Shown: piece by piece, positions 20,368 through 31,320 of the stretch
Layout of the letters: each line of letters opens with the position of its first letter
Position numbering within the stretch: the first letter of the stretch is position 1
NCBI GenBank assembly: GCA_031732875.1
Contig: JAVMKL010000101.1
Location: forward strand, 1-32,342
Direction: 5' to 3'
Length of the DNA: 32,342 nt
Origin: Candidatus Competibacter sp.
GTDB lineage: Bacteria; Pseudomonadota; Gammaproteobacteria; Competibacterales; Competibacteraceae
Made by a program: the position numbers and the translations under genes
The notes under the pieces: generated by a model
What the model saw: the letters and a program-made list of their open reading frames with translations, nothing else
Database searches by the model: none
What the model was told of the DNA's origin: nothing

Positions 20368-22329
20368 TCACCTCGGCCAGCCATCGCTGGAGTGTCGCCA
20401 ATCTTCAGGGCCACCGGCAAAACCGCCGGCGAGTTGCCGGTTCAGGGCGAGCAGCCGCCGCAAAATTTCAGCGTCTGGCATGGCCGGCTGGTAGTCGTCC
20501 CAACCATACGCCGCCGCCACGGCCGCATCCAGTTGCCGATGGGCCTGATCCAGCCAGGCCGGACGGGCGTTGTAGAGATTGGTCAAGGTGCGCCGGTTCA
20601 GTTCGGCGGCGAATTCCGGTTTGGGAAGCAGTCGGTCGGGATAGCCGGGAACGATTTCGGGAACCCGCTCCACCCATTCCGGCGGATTGAGCCAGTTTTG
20701 CCGCAGCGCGTTCAAGCGGCGCGCGGCTTCGGCGATGGCGGGGAACTGAGGCCCCTCGCCCGCTTGCGGGAGAGGGGTTGGGGTGAGGGCGTTTCGATTC
20801 GGCTGCAAACCAGGGGGAAACGGAAACGTCTCGAAGCAGGTGGCGGCGTTGTAGGTCGGGTCATTTCCAACGCCGTGCCGGCTGGCGTTGGCCAGCGCCC
20901 AGACTTCGTGAATGCGGGAATGCAGAATGCCGCAGGTCGCGTCGTCGTCGCGGGCGATCACGTACAGGCGGCTGTCGGGCAGCACGGCCGAATACAGCCA
21001 GACAAACAGCCGGTGCTTGGCGACGCGGGGCGTGGCGATGTAGCGCGGGACCCGAGCCAGCGCCTTCCGCATACCCGGCATGACCTCGCCATGCCGCCAC
21101 CAATATCTGGCGCGCAACGCCCGCCGGTTCCGTTCCCGTTCCGGCTTCACATGGGCCAGCACATAGGCGAACGGCGCTTCGTACAGCGCTGCCTCGGCCT
21201 CGGACAGTTCGCCGCCGAAGTCGATGATCCAGGTATCGGACGGGCGGCGGGTGATATCCATGCCGTTGGCCCAGGGGCGCAGGACATCACCGTTCGGCCT
21301 GCCGTGAGGGTTGGGTTGTTGAAGCCACTGGCGGGCCAGTTCGCCGGGAATGTCGAAAGCGCCGACTTTGACCGGCCCCTGAAAGCAGGTAGCTATGTTT
21401 TCGCGGAGCCTCACGGCCCTGGTTAAATCGGTTTCACCGGCGGTCAGGTCGGCGTTGACGGTGGCGACGGGGTGGCCGTCGAGTGAAATTCCCCCGGCTT
21501 CGCCACTCCCAAAACATACCAGCGACACCCGCACCGCCGCGCCGTCGTTGATCCAGGGTTCGTCCGACCAGGCGTTGAAGATGCGCGCCTTCACCTCCAG
21601 CCCCTGCGGAGGGAGGGGGGTATTGAGGATGCGTTCCAGCACGGTTCGATTGGCGCCCTTGCGGATGGCCTGCGTCGCCACCAGCCCGGCCCGTTGCGCC
21701 TTCCCCGCCTCAAGCTGCGCCCGCGCCTTCTCGAACCAGTAGCACACCAAATCCGCCCCGCCCGGCACCCGCCCGTCGTAATGGGCGACTTGGCGCGGAT
21801 CGTGGCCCCGCCGCTCCAGCGATCCGGCCAAGTCGGCGAACCGCCCCGCCGCCGCCAGGGTGATGTCGCGGTCGGTGCGGCGGGGGCGGAACTGCGCGGG
21901 GTGATCGAACACCGCGCGCAGCTTGGCGAGGTTCTCCGGCCGGCCGATCTCCTCCAGCCGGATGACGTGGGCTTCCGAGGGCGTGCCGGTGAAATGGGTG
22001 TGAATCTCGATGGTCCGCCGGTCGCAAACCACCAGCAGCGGCGGGTTGTCCAGGGCCAGGGCGTAGGTCATCAACTGCTTGAGCGCCTCGCCCAGATGGC
22101 CGCCCGGGGCCTTGTTCTCCCAGGCGAAACAGCCGCGCTTCCACACATCCGCCCAGCCACGCCCGGCCCCGGTGCGCGCCGCCCCGCGCTCGAAACAATA
22201 GTTCTCCGGGTCGCCGGGCTTGGCGACCCCCAGAATCTCGCAGAGATCGAGAAAGAACGGCTGAGCGCCGGCCCGCTCGCTCAGCGGATTGTCGCGCCAC
22301 AGGGCGATGAATTCAGCGGGAGTTCGCAA
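20368..22329 (-). CDS. MmeI-family (type IIL restriction-modification) homologue that retains the N-terminal PD-(D/E)xK nuclease domain and the C-terminal TRD/C-domain but lacks the methyltransferase catalytic core
   Basis: N-terminus aligns with MmeI (AQPFFLDLCEILGV ~ AKPFLIDFFEVFGI; GWADVWKRGCFAWENK...LLVVCDRRTIEIHT ~ GFVDLFWPGILLIEMK...YVLVCDFQRFRLT, with the D...ExK motif). The C-terminus also aligns (ARIFNAWSDEPW ~ AHRTFSWTNEAS; LTNLYNARPAWLDQAHRQLDAAVAAAYGW ~ LAGLYDPKTMPSELLKAHQKLDKAVDSVYGF). No FxGxG or NPPF/Y motifs are present, and the protein is ~270 aa shorter than MmeI. The only possible start is TTG 22329. Confidence 0.7.
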   Translation of the reverse strand: MRTPAEFIALWRDNPLSERAGAQPFFLDLCEILGVAKPGDPENYCFERGAARTGAGRGWADVWKRGCFAWENKAPGGHLGEALKQLMTYALALDNPPLLVVCDRRTIEIHTHFTGTPSEAHVIRLEEIGRPENLAKLRAVFDHPAQFRPRRTDRDITLAAAGRFADLAGSLERRGHDPRQVAHYDGRVPGGADLVCYWFEKARAQLEAGKAQRAGLVATQAIRKGANRTVLERILNTPLPPQGLEVKARIFNAWSDEPWINDGAAVRVSLVCFGSGEAGGISLDGHPVATVNADLTAGETDLTRAVRLRENIATCFQGPVKVGAFDIPGELARQWLQQPNPHGRPNGDVLRPWANGMDITRRPSDTWIIDFGGELSEAEAALYEAPFAYVLAHVKPERERNRRALRARYWWRHGEVMPGMRKALARVPRYIATPRVAKHRLFVWLYSAVLPDSRLYVIARDDDATCGILHSRIHEVWALANASRHGVGNDPTYNAATCFETFPFPPGLQPNRNALTPTPLPQAGEGPQFPAIAEAARRLNALRQNWLNPPEWVERVPEIVPGYPDRLLPKPEFAAELNRRTLTNLYNARPAWLDQAHRQLDAAVAAAYGWDDYQPAMPDAEILRRLLALNRQLAGGFAGGPEDWRHSSDGWPR

Positions 22330-23985: not shown

Positions 23986-24885
23986 CTAATACGCCGAGTT
24001 CAGCAGGTTCGAGGGAGAGTACTGGTCGGTGAGGATGCGCGCTCCTGGATCCCAGTCGCGCTCGGTCGAAAACAGCGGCACGAGCCAGTCGCCGCCAAAA
24101 CCGAATGGTTTCAGCTTCTCCTCGAGCGAATCGGCGTTCCGCTTGATGATGTCGAGAGCGGGAAGTCCGTCCATTCTGGTCAGGACGATGCGATTTTTCA
24201 GCTTCAGCCTGAGATTGTAGAAGGTCCCGAACACGGATTCGTAGGTCGTCGATTCGTGGGGGTAAAGACGGCTGCTTGAGAACGTATTGGCCACCAGAAC
24301 TCCATCCGCCGTCAACAGGGTCTTGACTTCGAGCAGAAACTCCCGGGTCAGCAGATGTTCCGGAATGTACTCGTGATCGAAGGCATCCAACATGACCAGA
24401 TCGTATCGTTGACCGGACTTGCCCGCACGCTTCACGAAAACCCGCCCGTCCTCCTCGAAAACCCGGACCCGCTGGCTCGGGTTAAAGTCGAAGAATTGTT
24501 GGGCGACTCTGATCACCGCCGGATCGATTTCCACGACATCGATCTCGGCATCCGGAAACATCCCGGCCAGCGCCGTCGGCAAGACGCCTCCCCCCAGTCC
24601 GACGATCAGGACTTTCCTGGGATTGGGATTCAAATACAGCGCGCCCATCATCATCTTCGTATAGCTGAAGACGAACTGGTTCGGATCGTCCAGGGAGCGG
24701 CAGGTTTGCCGGGCGGTTTGATTGCGCCGGGTGAAACTCATGCATCGCTGGTCGTCCTCTTCGTAAACGACGATATTCCGGTAAAGCGACTTTTCGGTGT
24801 GAACGATGGTCATTGCGGCGGATGGCTGGGTCACGAGCGAAGCGACAAAAGCGATCAGCGTATTGAGCCTATTGGCTTGGCGCAT
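23986..24885 (-). CDS. Spermidine-synthase-like (polyamine aminopropyltransferase-fold) protein
   Basis: TEKSLYRNIVVYEED...VLIVGLGGGVLPT...YDLVMLDAFD motifs of the spermidine synthase family. Candidate starts are ATG 24885 (MRQANRL, a hydrophobic leader), ATG 24813 and TTG 24912. Confidence 0.7.
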   Translation of the reverse strand: MRQANRLNTLIAFVASLVTQPSAAMTIVHTEKSLYRNIVVYEEDDQRCMSFTRRNQTARQTCRSLDDPNQFVFSYTKMMMGALYLNPNPRKVLIVGLGGGVLPTALAGMFPDAEIDVVEIDPAVIRVAQQFFDFNPSQRVRVFEEDGRVFVKRAGKSGQRYDLVMLDAFDHEYIPEHLLTREFLLEVKTLLTADGVLVANTFSSSRLYPHESTTYESVFGTFYNLRLKLKNRIVLTRMDGLPALDIIKRNADSLEEKLKPFGFGGDWLVPLFSTERDWDPGARILTDQYSPSNLLNSAY

Positions 24886-25552
24886 CGGTGGAATTTCCGA
24901 ACAGGATGGCAAGAAAACCCAAAATCAGCGAAATGCCGATCAGGCCGGCCAGAATCTGGTCGATCTCGAAATAGAGAACGAGATAGAACGACGTCAGGAT
25001 GGTTCCCACCGCGCTGCCGAAAGTCGAGAAAAAATAAAGCAGCCCCGCCAACTGGCCGCTCCGCTGGGATTCGTTCACCAGCAGGCGGACGGCATAGGGT
25101 GATACCATTCCGGCTATGGTGGTCGGAACGAAGAAGAGCAGGGTGGCCGATATCAGGGAACCGTAACGGGGATCCTGAACCAGGTCGAAGATCCAGTCGA
25201 GGACTGGATTGCCCAGCAGAATCACCGGGATGGTGGTCAGCGCCCCGGCAATCGAGATGAACGCCAGCCGGCGCAAGGTCGGGTCATACAACGACAATCG
25301 GCCGCCCAGGAGATAGCCGACCGACAGCGCCAGCATGAAAACCGTGATCACCCCTCCCCAGACATAGATGCTGTTGCCAAAATTCGGCGCGAGAATGCGC
25401 CCGCTCAACAGTTCGATCGCCATCACGAAAAACCCGGACCATCCAGCGATCAACAAGACGAAAAGGCGGCGCAAAGTCGAGTCCTCGCAACGGTTCGGGC
25501 CGCGCGCGCCGGCATCGCCGACGGCTTGGCGAGATGCTGGTGAGACTATCAT
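24869..25552 (-). CDS. Polytopic membrane protein resembling the N-terminal transmembrane domain of fused membrane spermidine-synthase-like proteins
   Basis: Six or seven hydrophobic helices. It overlaps the downstream SpeE-like ORF by 17-44 nt in a different frame, so the pair may be one gene with a frameshift (see findings). Confidence 0.6.
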   Translation of the reverse strand: MIVSPASRQAVGDAGARGPNRCEDSTLRRLFVLLIAGWSGFFVMAIELLSGRILAPNFGNSIYVWGGVITVFMLALSVGYLLGGRLSLYDPTLRRLAFISIAGALTTIPVILLGNPVLDWIFDLVQDPRYGSLISATLLFFVPTTIAGMVSPYAVRLLVNESQRSGQLAGLLYFFSTFGSAVGTILTSFYLVLYFEIDQILAGLIGISLILGFLAILFGNSTDAPSQ

Positions 25553-25561
25553 GCAAAGTCG

Positions 25562-25588
25562 AAAAAAGCCCGGCCTTGCGGCCGGGCT
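25562..25588 (-). terminator. Rho-independent terminator (copy 1) belonging to the duplicated SPFH 3' segment
   Basis: On the minus strand: agcccggcc-gcaa-ggccgggct followed by tttttt. Confidence 0.7.
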
Positions 25589-25603
25589 CCGGTTTGACGG
25601 CGC

Positions 25604-25823
25604 TCAATGCGCCGGCAGGTCAATGCGCACCGTGTCGCGCAACACGCTATCCAGGCCGCCGAACACGGTCAGCCGTTCGACCTTATCCACGACCTTCTCC
25701 AGCGCTTCCAGTTCCTTGAGCCGCAGCAGCAGGGGGTTCTCTTCCATGAGCTTCGCCGTGTTGAGCAGCGAGCGGGTGGCGGCGATTTCCTCGCGGCGGC
25801 GAATGATGTTGGCCTGCGCCACC
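25604..25823 (-). pseudogene. Orphan 3' fragment of an SPFH/band-7 gene (encodes ...VAQANIIRRREEIAATRSLLNTAKLMEENPLLLRLKELEALEKVVDKVERLTVFGGLDSVLRDTVRIDLPAH*)
   Basis: Matches the last 73 aa of the intact gene at 29722..30870 with a few substitutions. The N-terminal codons of the track ORF come from the insertion. Confidence 0.8.
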
Positions 25824-25852
25824 CTCGCGGAAAAAATCCACAAATATGGAAT

Positions 25853-28762
25853 TCAGTCTTTTTCAGTATGGCTGATGACTTTTTCAACTTGAATATCATT
25901 TATTCCAAAATCGTCCTGAATTTTAGTCTGTTTCTGTTTTCTACAAACTCTGCGAGAGAATATGAAACCCTTGGGGCACAATTCTATCTGTGGCAATATT
26001 CGTTCTTTGTTAGGATTTTCACAAAATTCATCGATATCTTTCTCCTGTGAAATGAGAAATTTAAGAAAATTAACTCCCTTATATTTGCAGGTTATATAGA
26101 GACTTAAAAGGATAAGATAAGAATTTAGGCCAGATTCTGAAATCTGATAATCAACAACCTCTCGATAATAAGCAAATTCCTTAATGGCGTGTTCCGCATT
26201 GTTATTATTCCATGGTACGCCATCATGATTAATAAACGTAAATAGTTTATCCTGATACTTCACCAATCTTTTACGGTAGTCTTCAGTCACTTCAGAACGG
26301 TAAATCTTCCCCGAGATATTTTTGAAGAATTGATTAACATCCCGTTTATGCTTTCCAAGGTATTTTTTCTGGAGTCCATAATTGTCAATAGTGTCGATGA
26401 TATTGCGTAGTAATTTACCAAAATCGGATGCGAGTTTTTTAAGTTCTTCATCCCATGAATTAGCCTGTATATCATTATTAAAGTCCCTGATAAGGTGGAT
26501 TAAACACTTTTGCTGTTCACATGGAAGAGCGTCATAAGGCGCGTAAAAATCAGAAATTAATACACCTCGAAAATCTTTTAGCATATTATTTAGAAAGCTT
26601 CCCTCTCGTGATTTCCTGTAGATATATAAGACTTCTTCCATATTTGTGAAGACCCACACATACTCTTTGCCATCACGCGTGAGATGAACCTCCGTCTCGT
26701 CCACATGGATAAAAGTACCACCTATCATCTTGGCCAGAATTTGCTTGGAAGTTTCCTCATAATATTGGGATAGTAACTGCTTAAATGTGAATACATCAAC
26801 TGTGGATACAGGTAACCCAAAATAGTCATTAAACCTCTTTGCGATTTTTGAAAAACTAGATCGACATGCCACATATTCATACATGGCCCAGCTTTTCAGG
26901 GAATGGAAATACTCGTCCGAACGAAGATATTCTTCGGGTAAGAACCGCTTGCCACATGTCAAACAGCAATGCCGAGTAGTCGTAAACCGTATTACCCATC
27001 TGCTGATACCACTTTGCGTGATTTGAAGGTTTCGAGCTAAGCGAACTAACCGCCTATCCATCTGCCGAGTTATCTCTGTCCCTCTACAGCTAGGGCATTT
27101 TTGGCTACTGATTTCAATGGTATTATTTGCCAAAATATCTTTTTTGCCCTGCCTACTGTGTCTTTTAGATCTCTTTTTCTTTAGAGCCTCGTTTGTTCGA
27201 ATAAAGATTTTATCTCTTTGATAATCGAAGTATGCGCATTTGTTGATAATCCTGAAATCAGGGATAGTGAACTCTGTCCGGCCCCAGTCTGGACGGCTAG
27301 AATCTGGACTCATCTCTCCTACTTGCGATACAGGGTAACCTTCGTGGGTTATGGTCTTGGGTTGCGTCGCCGAAGTTTGCTTCGGGCAGATGGCATAAAG
27401 GAACTCTGTTACCTTCTTCAATGCAGCACAGTCTTCCAAATTGTATGTTGCGAGCATTTCTTTGAGTGCCTGCGAACCAGTTTGCTCCCACTTATTTCGC
27501 CACACAATGCTCTGTATGCCTGAAGCATCGGCTTCAGTCCAGTTAAAACCCAGATAGCCACCGATATGCTTCAAGCCATTGGAATATGTAGGGAAATAGA
27601 TATGCGAATAAATGATTGAGAGAATGTTGACAACACGAGCAAGGATCTTGTCGCCAACCTCCTGTTGGCCCAAATCTTTTATCATTCGTCGCAAGAATAT
27701 TGCCTCATAACTACCATAAGCGTAGAGGTAAAAGTCGTCGAGACGATTCACTACATCGAGAAATTTCTGGAACAGATGGAATTCCTCAGTTTGGCTGTCT
27801 ACCCAAAATGAGTGATGCTCTTCCGCTCCATTCCTCACGATAATCATACCAAGCAGGTATATATATCTGCGTTCCGGGTCACCTTCGAGATCTAAATAGA
27901 TTTGTGTTGATGGATGTGGCAGTTCGGGTGTACCAAGCACGTAGATCTTCTTATTTCGAATAGCCAACGCCTGTAAAGCATGATTGTGTGGTTGACTTTT
28001 TTGCTTTGATCGCGTATTTCTTTTTTGTGGGCGGAAGATACAGGATAGTTGAGTGACAGTGAGGATTCCTCTCTTATTGTATTTTCGGATTTCCTTTTGA
28101 CTCAATCCTTGTAGCAAACTGAGGTCATCCTTTGCTGTCGCATTAACATGGCACCGTTGGCAGAACTCGCAAATTTGGCAGTGTCGGTTAAGCATTAATA
28201 CTGGAGCTACACCACTCTCTTGGATTTCCTTAATTTCTTGTAGTGCTCGTCGTGCGCTTTTATCGCCAGAATCCAGCTTGAATTTTGTGGTATTGCATTC
28301 GCGGCCATGGATCAAAATCCCAACCTGTGGTTGCCTTCCTTGGGTATCGCCGAGGATGCAGCCATGCATTGCAAGCAAGATTTTATGTTGTCTGTTGAGT
28401 TTTTCTGCCTCGTGGAATAATACGGGAATGTAGTGAAATTCTCCTAGTCGTGATGGGCCAACTTCTTTCTGGAGAGAATCAAAGTGGACTGCAATCCTCT
28501 GATCTTCTAGAATCACGTCTGAGAGTAATGATATCCCCCGTTTTAGTGTCGCAAGTGTTAGGGTGACACCATGTGCGGTATCGACTTCTTGGTATCGAGT
28601 TACAAGTTTATGCGTGGCCGCTTGTCGTACATGGTTTCTGGTCTCTTTCTGCAATAATTCATAGGGTGATACGTTACCTTGTTCACGAATCAGCTTCAGG
28701 TATCCTTTGTATTTGCAGTTCAAGTAGCTCTCTAGAATTTCCCCGGTGATCTTCGTGTCCAT
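25853..28762 (-). CDS. 969-aa fusion protein: N-terminal TM0106-family RecB/Cas4-like nuclease plus RNase-H-like (YprB-type 3'-5' exonuclease) domains, fused to a C-terminal IS66-family transposase (zinc ribbon + DDE domain)
   Basis: N-terminus ITGEILESYLNCKYKGYL plus HCQICEFCQRC Cys cluster (Cas4-like). IYLDLEGDPERRYIYLLGMII ... YGSYEAIFL ... NLEDCAAL form an RNase_H_2 / DEDD-like exonuclease triad. CPSCRG...CLTCGKRF is the IS66 zinc finger. FIHVDETEV ... YVWVF ... RGVLISDFYAPYD ... CLIHLIRDF ... NNNAEHAIKEF is an IS66 DDE transposase core. GGAGGTAAGCT SD precedes ATG 28762. Confidence 0.8.
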   Translation of the reverse strand: MDTKITGEILESYLNCKYKGYLKLIREQGNVSPYELLQKETRNHVRQAATHKLVTRYQEVDTAHGVTLTLATLKRGISLLSDVILEDQRIAVHFDSLQKEVGPSRLGEFHYIPVLFHEAEKLNRQHKILLAMHGCILGDTQGRQPQVGILIHGRECNTTKFKLDSGDKSARRALQEIKEIQESGVAPVLMLNRHCQICEFCQRCHVNATAKDDLSLLQGLSQKEIRKYNKRGILTVTQLSCIFRPQKRNTRSKQKSQPHNHALQALAIRNKKIYVLGTPELPHPSTQIYLDLEGDPERRYIYLLGMIIVRNGAEEHHSFWVDSQTEEFHLFQKFLDVVNRLDDFYLYAYGSYEAIFLRRMIKDLGQQEVGDKILARVVNILSIIYSHIYFPTYSNGLKHIGGYLGFNWTEADASGIQSIVWRNKWEQTGSQALKEMLATYNLEDCAALKKVTEFLYAICPKQTSATQPKTITHEGYPVSQVGEMSPDSSRPDWGRTEFTIPDFRIINKCAYFDYQRDKIFIRTNEALKKKRSKRHSRQGKKDILANNTIEISSQKCPSCRGTEITRQMDRRLVRLARNLQITQSGISRWVIRFTTTRHCCLTCGKRFLPEEYLRSDEYFHSLKSWAMYEYVACRSSFSKIAKRFNDYFGLPVSTVDVFTFKQLLSQYYEETSKQILAKMIGGTFIHVDETEVHLTRDGKEYVWVFTNMEEVLYIYRKSREGSFLNNMLKDFRGVLISDFYAPYDALPCEQQKCLIHLIRDFNNDIQANSWDEELKKLASDFGKLLRNIIDTIDNYGLQKKYLGKHKRDVNQFFKNISGKIYRSEVTEDYRKRLVKYQDKLFTFINHDGVPWNNNNAEHAIKEFAYYREVVDYQISESGLNSYLILLSLYITCKYKGVNFLKFLISQEKDIDEFCENPNKERILPQIELCPKGFIFSRRVCRKQKQTKIQDDFGINDIQVEKVISHTEKD

Positions 28763-28939
28763 AGCTTACCTCCAAGGATGAAGTTTCCATTAGCAGATCC
28801 ACGCACATCAGATACTGCACCACTCGACCCCGGTCAGTCACGATGCGTTCCAGTTTCGCTGCCGACAGGCTAATAGGATTGGGCCGGAAGGTGGAACGAG
28901 TCGCGAATACGTCCAGCCGCCCGAGTCGATCCGGGCTGG

Positions 28940-29679
28940 CGTGGAACCCCGAATTATCGCGGAAGCAGCCTCAATGACTTACCGGCTAAAGCCGGTAGGT
29001 TGTTAGAGGCGTAAACGCCCGTTCAGACTCAAGTCAGTTCGGGTTGCGGATGAATCTGCCTGAAGCTCATTCCGCCAGCGCCGGTGACTCGTCCCAGACT
29101 TGGAAGGCACCCGATCCGTCCTCTTGCTCTTCGATATAGCGCTTAACTTGTTCTTCCGTCACTCTGCCCCCACCGTCACGCAGAAATACCCCCTCCCCCA
29201 CAGGTATTGGCTCCAATACCGCTTCTGCAACTCCCGAAATTCCCGCTGCAACCGATAGGAGGATTTACCCTTGAGGTATTGCAGCATCTTTGCCGGCGAC
29301 AGATACGTCGGCGCACTCACCAAGAGATGGACATGATTGGGGCGAATATTTCCCTGTATGACTACCATATCGTGTTCCGCAGCGATCATCCGCAGCAAAT
29401 CCCGGAGCCGGAGCCCGATCTCCCCGCGCAACACTGGATACCCGTACTTCGTCTTCCATACCATGTGGTACTTCAGGTCTGTAACCGTGTGGGCACCACG
29501 CCGATACCGCGCTCGATCTACCATCCGCTGTTCCCGCTCAAGCTGTAGCCCTTGACGAAGGGCGCGTGCTAAAGACGTTTCCGCCTAAAGGCGAAGGTTT
29601 ATATCCTATTGTTTGGAAATCAAACGATGCTGATCGGCGTCAAGCTAAATATTGGCGGAATTTCGGTGGACAGTGGTAC
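28940..29679 (-). mobile_element. IS200-like (IS200/IS605 family) element, ~0.74 kb, with TAAA-loop subterminal hairpins on both sides of tnpA
   Basis: tnpA is flanked by short hairpins cgcc-taaa-ggcg (29581-29592), gccctt-gacg-aagggc (29547-29562), ccggc-taaa-gccgg (28981-28994) and ggcg-taaa-cgcc (29007-29018). The size matches IS200. The left boundary is approximate. Confidence 0.5.
29068..29524 (-). pseudogene. tnpA: IS200/IS605-family Y1 (HuH) transposase tnpA, frameshifted near the 3' end
   Basis: TDLKYHMVWKTKYGYPVL ... HVHLLVSAP (HuH) ... YLKGKSSYRLQ ... RGYFCVTVGAE*. The conserved C-terminus VTEEQVKRYIEEQE continues in another frame immediately after the stop (gcaGAGtgacggaagaa), extending to TGA at 29068. 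Confidence 0.75.
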
Positions 29680-29706
29680 AAAAAAGCCCGGCCTTGCGGC
29701 CGGGCT
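29680..29706 (-). terminator. Rho-independent terminator of the intact SPFH gene (repeat copy 2)
   Basis: On the minus strand: agcccggcc-gcaa-ggccgggct followed by tttttt. The IS200-like LE begins immediately 3' of the T-run. Confidence 0.7.
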
Positions 29707-29941
29707 CCGGTTTGACGGCGCTCAATGCGCCGGCAGGTCAATGCGCACCGTATCGCGCAACACGCCATCCAGGCCACCGAACACGGTCAGCCGTTCGACC
29801 TTGTCGACCACCTTCTCCAGCGCCTCCAGTTCCTTGAGCCGCAGCAGCAGGGGGTTCTCCTCCATCAGCTTCGCCGTGTTGAGCAGCGAGCGGGTGGCGG
29901 CGGTTTCCTCGCGCCGGCGGATGACGTTGGCCTGCGCCACC
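29680..29941. repeat. Direct repeat copy 2 (262 bp) = native 3' end of the SPFH gene plus terminator
   Basis: See copy 1 (25562..25823). Confidence 0.8.
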
Positions 29942-30870
29942 TTCTCCGCCTGCACGACCTGGTTGAGAATGTCCTTCATCTCGCCCGGCAGGATCACGTC
30001 CTTCAAGCCGACCGTCTCCAGTTCCAGACCGTGCGGGCGAACCTTCTCGACCGCGTAGTCCCACACGGCCCGATCCAGTTCGTCCTTGTCGCCGAGCAGC
30101 ACGTCCAGGGTGCGGGTACCGATGGTCTGGCGCAGACCGAACTGCAAGGTCCGGTACAGGTAGTCGCCGCTGTTGCCCAGTTCGGCGCGAGCCTTCACCG
30201 GATCGGCGATCCGGTAGACCGCCGACAGGTTCACCCGCAGGCTGACCTTGTCCTTGGTCAGGATTTCCTGGCCGGAGACCTCCAGGGTCTGCAAGCGCAG
30301 GTCCACCGACTCTACCTTCACCGCCCGGTTGAACCGCCAGAAGGCGTGCAGGCCGGGCGACAGGGTACGGACCAGCTCGCCGTCCACCAGCAACAGACCG
30401 ATGTGGTTGTCCTCCACCTCGGCGACCTGAATGAAACCGGTCACATTCTTGACCAGGGTCGCCGACGGCCGCGCCAGCAGGGCCGCGTGCGCCCGCGACA
30501 GGGCGTAATCGGTGGCGATGTTGATCGACTCGACGCGAACCTCCACCGGACCCCGCCAGTAGACCCGACGGGTCGCGGGGGGCAACACGCCATCCAGACG
30601 ACCGTTCTTGTAGATCAGGCCAACCTGCCGGTCGCCGGTCTCGACGACCTGAAAATGGCGCTCGATCAGCTCCTGGTCGGTCTTCAACAGCACGTCCAGC
30701 CAGGGGTGCTCGAACTCGGCCACGGTTAGATCGTACCGCTGCACCTCGTGGCGGTTCAGAGGATCGAGCCAACGGTAAATACCCGGTTCCAGAATGGCCG
30801 CCAGCCGGCGGTCGTACAGGTGGAGCCCACGCTCGTTCTGGGCGATCACGATTCGCTTGTAACCCAACAT
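29722..30870 (-). CDS. SPFH/band-7 (stomatin/slipin-like) domain protein, apparently soluble (no N-terminal TM helix)
   Basis: The C-terminal half carries the SPFH core and coiled-coil (RTLQFGLRQTIGTRTLDVLLGDKDELD...ILPGEMKDILNQVVQAEKVAQANVIRRREE...). Start MLGYKRIVIA at 30870 has an AAGGAG SD. The upstream part of the 443-aa track ORF lacks a start signal. Confidence 0.75.
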   Translation of the reverse strand: MLGYKRIVIAQNERGLHLYDRRLAAILEPGIYRWLDPLNRHEVQRYDLTVAEFEHPWLDVLLKTDQELIERHFQVVETGDRQVGLIYKNGRLDGVLPPATRRVYWRGPVEVRVESINIATDYALSRAHAALLARPSATLVKNVTGFIQVAEVEDNHIGLLLVDGELVRTLSPGLHAFWRFNRAVKVESVDLRLQTLEVSGQEILTKDKVSLRVNLSAVYRIADPVKARAELGNSGDYLYRTLQFGLRQTIGTRTLDVLLGDKDELDRAVWDYAVEKVRPHGLELETVGLKDVILPGEMKDILNQVVQAEKVAQANVIRRREETAATRSLLNTAKLMEENPLLLRLKELEALEKVVDKVERLTVFGGLDGVLRDTVRIDLPAH

Positions 30871-31320
30871 CTTGGTTCTCCTTGTGAAGTTGTTTGCAGT
30901 CTTCCTGTTCCGCCGCAATGCGGCGGGCGAGCGTGGCGTGTTGCTAGTCGGCGCCGTTTCCGGCCCGCCACCGCCGAGCGTCAGGATGTCATCGAGACCT
31001 GCTCCTGCCGGTTGGTTGATGAAAGAGGTTAAAGGGTTGGGAGCACACCCCACGCCCGCGCGGCGGACGACGGGTCGCTGCCGGGTCGATGATCGGCGGG
31101 CCTCGTGCGGCGGCCAGCGTCCTTGCTGGCCAGCGTCGCGCTCGGCTGGCCGATCATGACTTCAGCCTGATTCCCCGTCGCGCGGGACCGCGCGGACGGT
31201 GCGGGTCGGCGACCGTCCGATGCCGAGGCACCGGGCAAGCCGCCGCCCGCCGGGGTGGCTCCCGGGGTACTACAGTCGATGAAGCGGATTCGAACCGCGA
31301 GCCGTTTTAAGGCTTTCCCA

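Follow-up and report, generated by a model that had tools for sequence, protein, structure and literature searches.

Contig JAVMKL010000101.1 of Candidatus Competibacter sp. (assembly GCA_031732875.1) carries a single reading frame in which a Cas4-like nuclease and a 3′–5′ exonuclease are predicted to be joined to an IS66-type transposase, and the question that this locus raises is whether such a gene is a mobile element, a domesticated host protein or an artefact. The stretch analysed, hereafter the window, is this contig (C101) over its 32,342 nucleotides; it belongs to a genome (G000) of 3.94 Mb in 300 contigs that is 94% complete and holds one copy of the fusion gene. At 25853–28762, on the minus strand, the window has one intact open reading frame (ORF) running from ATG to TGA, with the ribosome-binding site GGAGG 6 nt 5′ of the start. 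It encodes a protein of 969 amino acids, P0001. We consider it somewhat probable that P0001, a nuclease-transposase of three domains, is the centre of a low-copy, horizontally spread, transposase-derived mobile unit.

Domain architecture and conserved residues of P0001

The N-terminal part of P0001 corresponds to the TM0106-family RecB-like nuclease model TIGR03491 of NCBIfam (residues 6–455, model positions 2–462 of 462, E 1.5e-75), a match that encloses that of Pfam RNase_H_2 (residues 288–455, E 2.2e-24). Pfam Cas_Cas4 matches residues 119–205 weakly (E 0.0036, under the curated cutoff), and the relationship is clearer with the PADLOC Cas4 profile (residues 3–205, E 2.5e-7). Further along the protein, Pfam DDE_Tnp_IS66 covers residues 624–870 (E 6.3e-27) and the NCBIfam IS66 transposase equivalog NF033517 covers residues 531–903 (E 1e-50), the latter with 173 bits and thus short of the curated cutoff of 180 bits. 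No Pfam zf-IS66 match was called in P0001, though four zinc-ribbon cysteines are present. Sequence searches of solved structures with P0001 returned nothing, and one profile gave only a weak Cas4 match.

An AlphaFold2 model of P0001, built from a 22-sequence alignment, was compared with the PDB by Foldseek. The model has a predicted local distance difference test (pLDDT) score of 80.7, with a disordered linker at residues 462–523 and a disordered tail at residues 920–969. It matches the ISCth4 DDE transposase (E 2.2e-8) and the type I-C Cas4 subunit of the Cas4–Cas1–Cas2 complex (8d3l; E 1.8e-5, TM-score by target 0.63). Further matches include the Cas4 proteins Pcal_0546 and SSO0001, Dna2 and TREX1/DnaQ exonucleases, the Cas4 entries being 8d3l, 4r5q and 4ic1. 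On sequence and predicted structure, P0001 is a protein of three domains, namely a Cas4-like PD-(D/E)xK iron–sulphur (Fe–S) domain, a DnaQ/YprB-like 3′–5′ exonuclease and an IS66-type zinc-ribbon DDE transposase.

Residue conservation was read from a 22-sequence alignment of homologs 36–97% identical, drawn from Gammaproteobacteria, Betaproteobacteria, Planctomycetota, Acidobacteriota, Nitrospirota, Cyanobacteria and one Nitrososphaerales archaeon. The Fe–S cysteines C195, C198 and C204 (C-x2-C-x5-C) are invariant and C16 is 95% conserved; in a profile alignment these positions of P0001 coincide with the cysteines of the Fe–S cluster in type I-C Cas4. Exonuclease motif I (D291-x-E293) and motif III (Y440-x3-D444) are likewise invariant and DEDDy-like, while the aspartate of motif II was not identified from sequence. 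In the transposase part, the zinc-ribbon cysteines C556, C559, C600 and C603 (C-x2-C...C-x2-C), the DDE triad of D688 (HVDETEV), D738 (ISDFYAPYD) and E857 (NNNNAEHA), and K861 are all invariant. The exonuclease and transposase active sites are thus conserved, which implies that both predicted activities are under selection. The Cas4-like domain has no invariant D, E or K between residues 100 and 190 (D95 is 86% conserved), and the Cas4 ‘VEYK’ segment falls over L115-F116-H117 of P0001 in a weak profile alignment (E 0.061); the E-x-K nuclease motif of this domain may therefore have been lost in the P0001 family. A C-K-Y-K-G motif occurs twice in P0001, at residues 16–20 and 891–895 (window 28711–28726 and 26078–26093). 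Both of its cysteines are conserved, C892 being invariant, and it is possible that C892 contributes to the N-terminal Fe–S site in the folded protein.

The base composition of the gene sets it apart from its surroundings. The G+C content of the P0001 ORF is 0.41 against 0.64 in the flanks, and in composition profiles it ranges from 0.33 to 0.47 over 25750–28800 compared with 0.56–0.71 in the remainder of the window. The sole AT-rich stretch of the window thus consists of the P0001 ORF and short untranslated ends, with sharp borders near 25750 and 28800 that lie no more than about 100 bp from the ends of the ORF.

Much of this agrees with an earlier sequence-only reading of the window, which had described a single 969-residue ORF with a TM0106/Cas4-like/RNase_H_2 module at its N-terminus and an IS66-type DDE transposase at its C-terminus. 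The ORF is intact; the first module is confirmed by TIGR03491, Pfam, PADLOC and structural matches, and the second by Pfam DDE_Tnp_IS66, NCBIfam and the structural match to ISCth4. The motifs then listed (HCQICEFCQRC, IYLDLEGD, YGSYEAIF, NLEDCAAL, CPSC..CLTCG, HVDETEV, ISDFYAPYD, NNNAEHAIK and CLIHLIRDF) are all found in the translation, the leucine-zipper N-terminus usual in IS66 transposases is indeed absent, and the gene is, as had been stated, the only strongly AT-rich segment of the window. The zf-IS66 assignment stood as regards the four invariant cysteines but not as a match to the Pfam model.

A widespread fusion family and its movement between genomes

A protein database search with P0001 returned 2153 homologous proteins at E ≤ 1e-3, and the best 120 of these are all 900–1000 residues long, each with both RNase_H_2 and DDE_Tnp_IS66. 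A scan of a genome collection gave 478 loci in Planctomycetota, Acidobacteriota, Nitrospirota, Deltaproteobacteria, Gamma- and Betaproteobacteria, Cyanobacteria and archaea, distant members being intact ORFs. A plasmid-borne member bears the RefSeq name ‘TM0106 family RecB-like putative nuclease’ and many members carry the JGI label ‘predicted RecB family nuclease’; our literature searches found no paper describing a TM0106–IS66 fusion. Judged by these sequences, P0001 is a member of a widespread, database-recognized but uncharacterized fusion family and is not unique to the Competibacter genome. The novelty that the sequence-only reading had attached to the fusion is not upheld, given more than 2,000 database proteins and an existing RefSeq name. 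Some TM0106-domain proteins lack the transposase part, and many of these are truncated fusions. A search for shorter proteins with the IS66 part gave only fragments of the fusion family, and for this reason a close standalone IS66 parent could not be judged.

The unusual architecture and the disordered linker at residues 462–523 are all that speaks for an artefact, in which a TM0106 nuclease gene and an IS66 tnpC would be read as one ORF through a sequencing frameshift or misassembly. Against this, over 2,000 independent proteins, some of them from complete genomes and plasmids, have the same continuous fused ORF, distant homologs are intact, and so are the copies in two Competibacter-lineage genomes (G001 and L003) at 97% identity. 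The recurrence of the fusion across independent proteins, genomes and plasmids therefore excludes a frameshift or chimera, an explanation to which we give next to no credence; the joining of two genes by a frameshift, raised in the sequence-only reading, is not what is found.

Several observations point to transfer of the gene between hosts. Host taxonomy and protein identity are incongruent, a gammaproteobacterial protein being 57–63% identical to archaeal and deltaproteobacterial ones. Two plasmids carry the gene, the conjugative Acaryochloris plasmid pREC4 (MOBF) and a Calothrix plasmid; no phage matches to the fusion gene were obtained. At most of 35 loci the gene has a lower G+C content than its host, and on this comparison AT bias is a general trait of the fusion gene family in many hosts. 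In two pairs of related metagenome-assembled genomes (MAGs), L004 with L005 and L054 with L065, the shared DNA comprises the gene together with ~100–750 bp upstream and 0–115 bp downstream. The sequences on either side are unrelated, which places the unit at different sites in these genomes. Within the unit upstream of the fusion gene, an ORF of 163 residues without a Pfam match was seen at L004:2354–2845 and L005:2442–2930, and is confined to these two loci.

Copy number is low. Six genomes (G000, G001 and G041–G044) have one copy each, while ordinary IS66 transposases, which are ~22–25% identical to P0001, number 10–40 per genome in the same genomes. An alphaproteobacterial MAG (G045) has two full-length fusion genes (C2:225203–227899 and C2:2383047–2385473). 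These paralogs are divergent and have no DNA similarity to each other, and are therefore taken as independent acquisitions and not as the outcome of recent transposition.

A complete IS66-type DDE core with a zinc ribbon, movement between sites and horizontal spread would be expected of a classical autonomous single-ORF IS66 insertion sequence, that is, a tnpC with an N-terminal nuclease, bounded by terminal inverted repeats (TIRs) and short target duplications and present here once by chance. However, when flanks of 800–3,000 bp were compared by blastn-short at 33 loci, no recurrent TIRs were found near the gene ends, only chance 12–13-mers, and there were no conserved non-coding ends across genera, flank conservation being restricted to close relatives. 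The nearest ORF on each side at 27 loci, searched with Pfam, revealed diverse neighbours and no tnpA/tnpB, cas or other conserved partner gene; in the window, too, no tnpA/tnpB lies upstream. Moreover, an 8-bp target-site duplication was not seen at the G000 locus, which has a 264-bp direct repeat instead, and the fusion gene stays at a single copy in six genomes in which true IS66 copies proliferate alongside it. We therefore regard a classical IS66 element as quite unlikely. At one Blastocatellia locus (L022) a 934-bp inverted repeat, 98% identical, spans the fusion gene and is perhaps a pair of other insertion sequence copies.

These results also bear on what the sequence-only reading had said of origin and mobility. 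Horizontal acquisition, with the AT-rich composition, stands; that it was recent holds only in part, in view of the shared insertion site described below and of the family-wide AT bias. As regards the proposal of an IS66-derived mobile element, a mobile unit of low copy number, or else a unit that became fixed at a single site recently, fits better than a classical IS66 element, there being no TIRs, no tnpA/tnpB and one copy; intact copies with TIRs, for which it had advised a search of other genomes, were absent from the 33 loci.

The insertion site in the Competibacter lineage

The copy in G001, a genome of the same genus, is 97% identical in DNA and lies at the same site, and in L003, a Candidatus Competibacter MAG, the same site is conserved with 96% DNA identity across 6 kb. 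In all, the orthologous site is occupied in five cases (G000, G001, L003, L083 and L120), and the metagenome runs that contain the stretch derive from activated sludge, wastewater and bioreactors. Since G001 and the Competibacter MAG share the site, the gene would have arrived before those strains split; on these sequence comparisons the insertion is old and shared by the lineage of Competibacter-like strains rather than strain-specific. An empty site was not found in the relatives G012 and G014, because the orthologs of the Band-7 gene and of the neighbouring 227-residue membrane protein gene lie there in different neighbourhoods.

The fused element adjoins the downstream side of the terminator of a Band-7/SPFH gene, and the two repeats that surround it (Table 1) are the only copies in G000. 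The second of them, R2, copies the last 74 codons of the Band-7 gene together with the terminator. It holds an ORF of 79 residues (25604–25843, minus strand) that starts within the 3′ end of the element and reads into the Band-7 C-terminus, and is thus a truncated paralog fragment. The 264-bp duplicate may have arisen by recombination or, alternatively, as a long target-site duplication when the element inserted. In the related Competibacter contig L120 the Band-7 arrangement is the same and the junction between element and Band-7 differs by ~47 bp. Band-7 fragments flank the Competibacter-lineage copies only, those of other genera having no Band-7 neighbour. Site specificity for Band-7 genes was considered and rejected, as Band-7 is met only in the Competibacter lineage and L004 and L010 have unrelated genes upstream.

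Table 1. Features of the fused element and of its Band-7 flanks in the window.
Feature	Position	Strand	Basis or remark
Fused nuclease-transposase ORF P0001, 969 aa	25853..28762	-	ORF, Pfam, NCBIfam; distant homologs intact
aa 1-210, predicted Cas4-like PD-(D/E)xK fold with Fe-S cysteines C16, C195, C198, C204	28133..28762	-	PADLOC Cas4, weak Pfam Cas4, Foldseek, profile alignment, conserved cysteines
aa 288-455, predicted DnaQ/YprB-like 3′-5′ exonuclease (RNase_H_2)	27398..27901	-	Pfam, TREX1/DnaQ structural matches, invariant D291, E293, Y440, D444
aa 462-523, disordered linker between nuclease part and transposase part	27194..27379	-	pLDDT <50
aa 556-603, zf-IS66 zinc ribbon	26954..27097	-	C556, C559, C600, C603 invariant
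aa 624-870, predicted IS66-type DDE transposase domain	26153..26893	-	Pfam DDE_Tnp_IS66, NCBIfam IS66 equivalog just below cutoff, ISCth4 structural match, invariant residues
DDE residue codons	D688 26699-26701; D738 26549-26551; E857 26192-26194	-	K861 also invariant
5′ untranslated leader with GGAGG ribosome-binding site	28763..28968	-	conserved with G001, L003, L083, L120
Band-7/SPFH gene, 443 aa, 3′ end duplicated around element	29722..31053	-	Pfam Band_7; orthologs in G012 and G014 differ in what lies downstream
R1, original Band-7 3′ end and terminator, on 5′ side of element	29680..29944	+	direct repeat of R2, 94.7% identical
R2, 264-bp copy of Band-7 3′ end and terminator, directly past 3′ end of element	25562..25826	+	repeat comparison

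Occupancy of one orthologous, fixed site in the five Competibacter-lineage cases is what would be expected if P0001 were a domesticated, immobile transposase-nuclease that serves its host, for instance by repairing DNA or by warding off foreign DNA, and is inherited vertically within lineages with occasional horizontal transfer. The single copy and the strong conservation of the catalytic residues are consistent with this. The Cas4-family relationship seen in the PADLOC match also points to defence or repair, roles that are described for the Cas4 family (PMC5704561), and an MmeI-like restriction enzyme is encoded 3.5 kb away. On the other hand, the distribution of the family is patchy and taxonomically incongruent, related genomes carry the gene at different sites, conjugative plasmids carry it as well, no consistent gene neighbourhood or defence-island context is apparent, and the gene is AT-rich relative to its hosts. 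Domestication is thus a possible reading, though on balance an unlikely one.

Other features of the locus were noted. An apparently complete IS200/IS605-family element lies at 28969–29617, at the 5′ end of the fused element (Y1_Tnp Pfam E 6.7e-32), and includes a TnpA (Y1) ORF at 29159–29524 on the minus strand. It is present in G000 only, being absent from G001, L003 and L083, and its empty site is seen in a Logan contig from another sludge sample (joint 28955->29618). On the same side of the fused element, G001 and L003 have at window ~29652 a 107-bp segment with a strong palindrome (CCCCTCCTTGGATAAGGAGGGG-type) that is absent from G000; it may be REP/BIME-like. The MmeI-like gene (20368–22329, minus strand, ~3.5 kb from the element) encodes a Type IIL restriction-modification enzyme with MmeI_N, TRD and C-terminal domains, and a spermidine synthase-like methyltransferase gene (23986–24912, minus strand) adjoins that for the 227-residue membrane protein. 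The window contains no tandem repeat array of the CRISPR kind.

Proposed mode of action and comparison with known systems

The unit moves between genomes, is carried by conjugative plasmids and lies at differing sites, without the multiplication inside genomes that is typical of IS66. If P0001 is the core of a low-copy mobile unit, as we favour, the DDE domain, with its intact triad, K861 and zinc ribbon, would probably carry out the joining of DNA (integration). The exonuclease, possibly with the Cas4-like domain, would probably shorten or resect the DNA ends, either ahead of the joining step or after it, in a manner resembling CRISPR adaptation, where Cas4 and DnaQ-like exonucleases ready the DNA for Cas1, the integrase. 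In G000 the unit is an old, fixed insertion just downstream of the Band-7 terminator, followed by the 264-bp duplicate of the Band-7 3′ end. We infer enzymatic activity, self-mobility and the order of the steps, the activities from the conserved active sites.

A number of points weigh against this proposal. Neither transposition nor excision nor enzyme activity has been observed for the fusion element. The Logan contigs of four metagenomes contained no excised or empty-site form, although such contigs break at repeats and cannot show rare forms, so that this absence is no evidence. Within the Competibacter lineage the unit stays at a single, fixed orthologous site, which looks like domestication or inactivity. 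Its ends are defined only roughly and have no recognizable end motif, which leaves recognition by the DDE transposase unexplained. Finally, the possible loss of the E-x-K motif makes a nuclease role of the Cas4-like domain uncertain.

A bolder version of the same idea would make P0001 a single polypeptide that captures and integrates DNA, the transposon-borne counterpart of CRISPR adaptation, in which the nucleases make or trim DNA fragments or ends and the DDE domain integrates them. Movement would then follow a resection-coupled route without inverted repeats, and long target duplications, of which the 264-bp Band-7 repeat would be an example, could be left behind. We put this forward as a speculation that is very doubtful.

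For G000 itself the locus is an ordinary, fixed insertion common to the lineage, and its wider interest lies in the family. The latter is large, widespread and horizontally mobile in bacteria and archaea, with two predicted nuclease activities and a transposase in each protein, and no member has been characterized. That it keeps to a low copy number and has no inverted repeats calls into question the usual view of how elements related to IS66 spread. Were it true that the DDE domain integrates DNA after nuclease processing, the family would be a transposase-based system that parallels, independently, adaptation by Cas4, exonuclease and Cas1, and would show a new way for transposases to acquire modules that process DNA.

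Within the TM0106 RecB-like nuclease (TIGR03491)–IS66 family, the architecture and catalytic residues of P0001 are identical to those of other members, and P0001 stands out only by its strong AT bias and by the context of the Band-7 duplication. Like the TnpC transposases of IS66 (for example IS66/ISPsy and the single-ORF ISBst12 group), it has the zf-IS66 ribbon, a DDE(K) core and a similar RNase-H fold. Unlike them, it has a predicted Cas4-like and DnaQ-like module in place of the leucine-zipper N-terminus, and the unit differs from IS66 elements in having neither tnpA/tnpB nor TIRs and in its single copy per genome.

With solo-Cas4, mobile genetic element (MGE)-associated Cas4 and the nuclease domains of Dna2, RecB and AddB, P0001 would share a PD-(D/E)xK fold of the Cas4-like kind and an Fe–S cluster of the form C...CxxC(x5)C. 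It differs in that the E-x-K motif usual in Cas4 is possibly replaced in the P0001 family (L115-F116-H117) and in the fusion of the domain with an exonuclease and a transposase. Casposons, the Cas1-solo transposons, rely on Cas1 as their recombinase and possess TIRs as well as family B polymerases. The P0001 unit resembles them in pairing a putative integrase with Cas-like nucleases but has an IS66-type DDE enzyme, with no Cas1, no TIRs and no PolB among its neighbours. The CRISPR adaptation module, composed of Cas4, a DnaQ-like exonuclease and Cas1–Cas2, is matched by P0001 in the combination, predicted from sequence, of a Cas4-family Fe–S nuclease, an end-trimming, DEDD-like 3′–5′ exonuclease and a DNA integrase, and the Cas4-like domain structurally matches type I-C Cas4 of the Cas4–Cas1–Cas2 complex. 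It is unlike that module in having no Cas2 and no CRISPR array, in that the integrase would be a DDE transposase rather than Cas1, and in that all of these parts are joined in one polypeptide.

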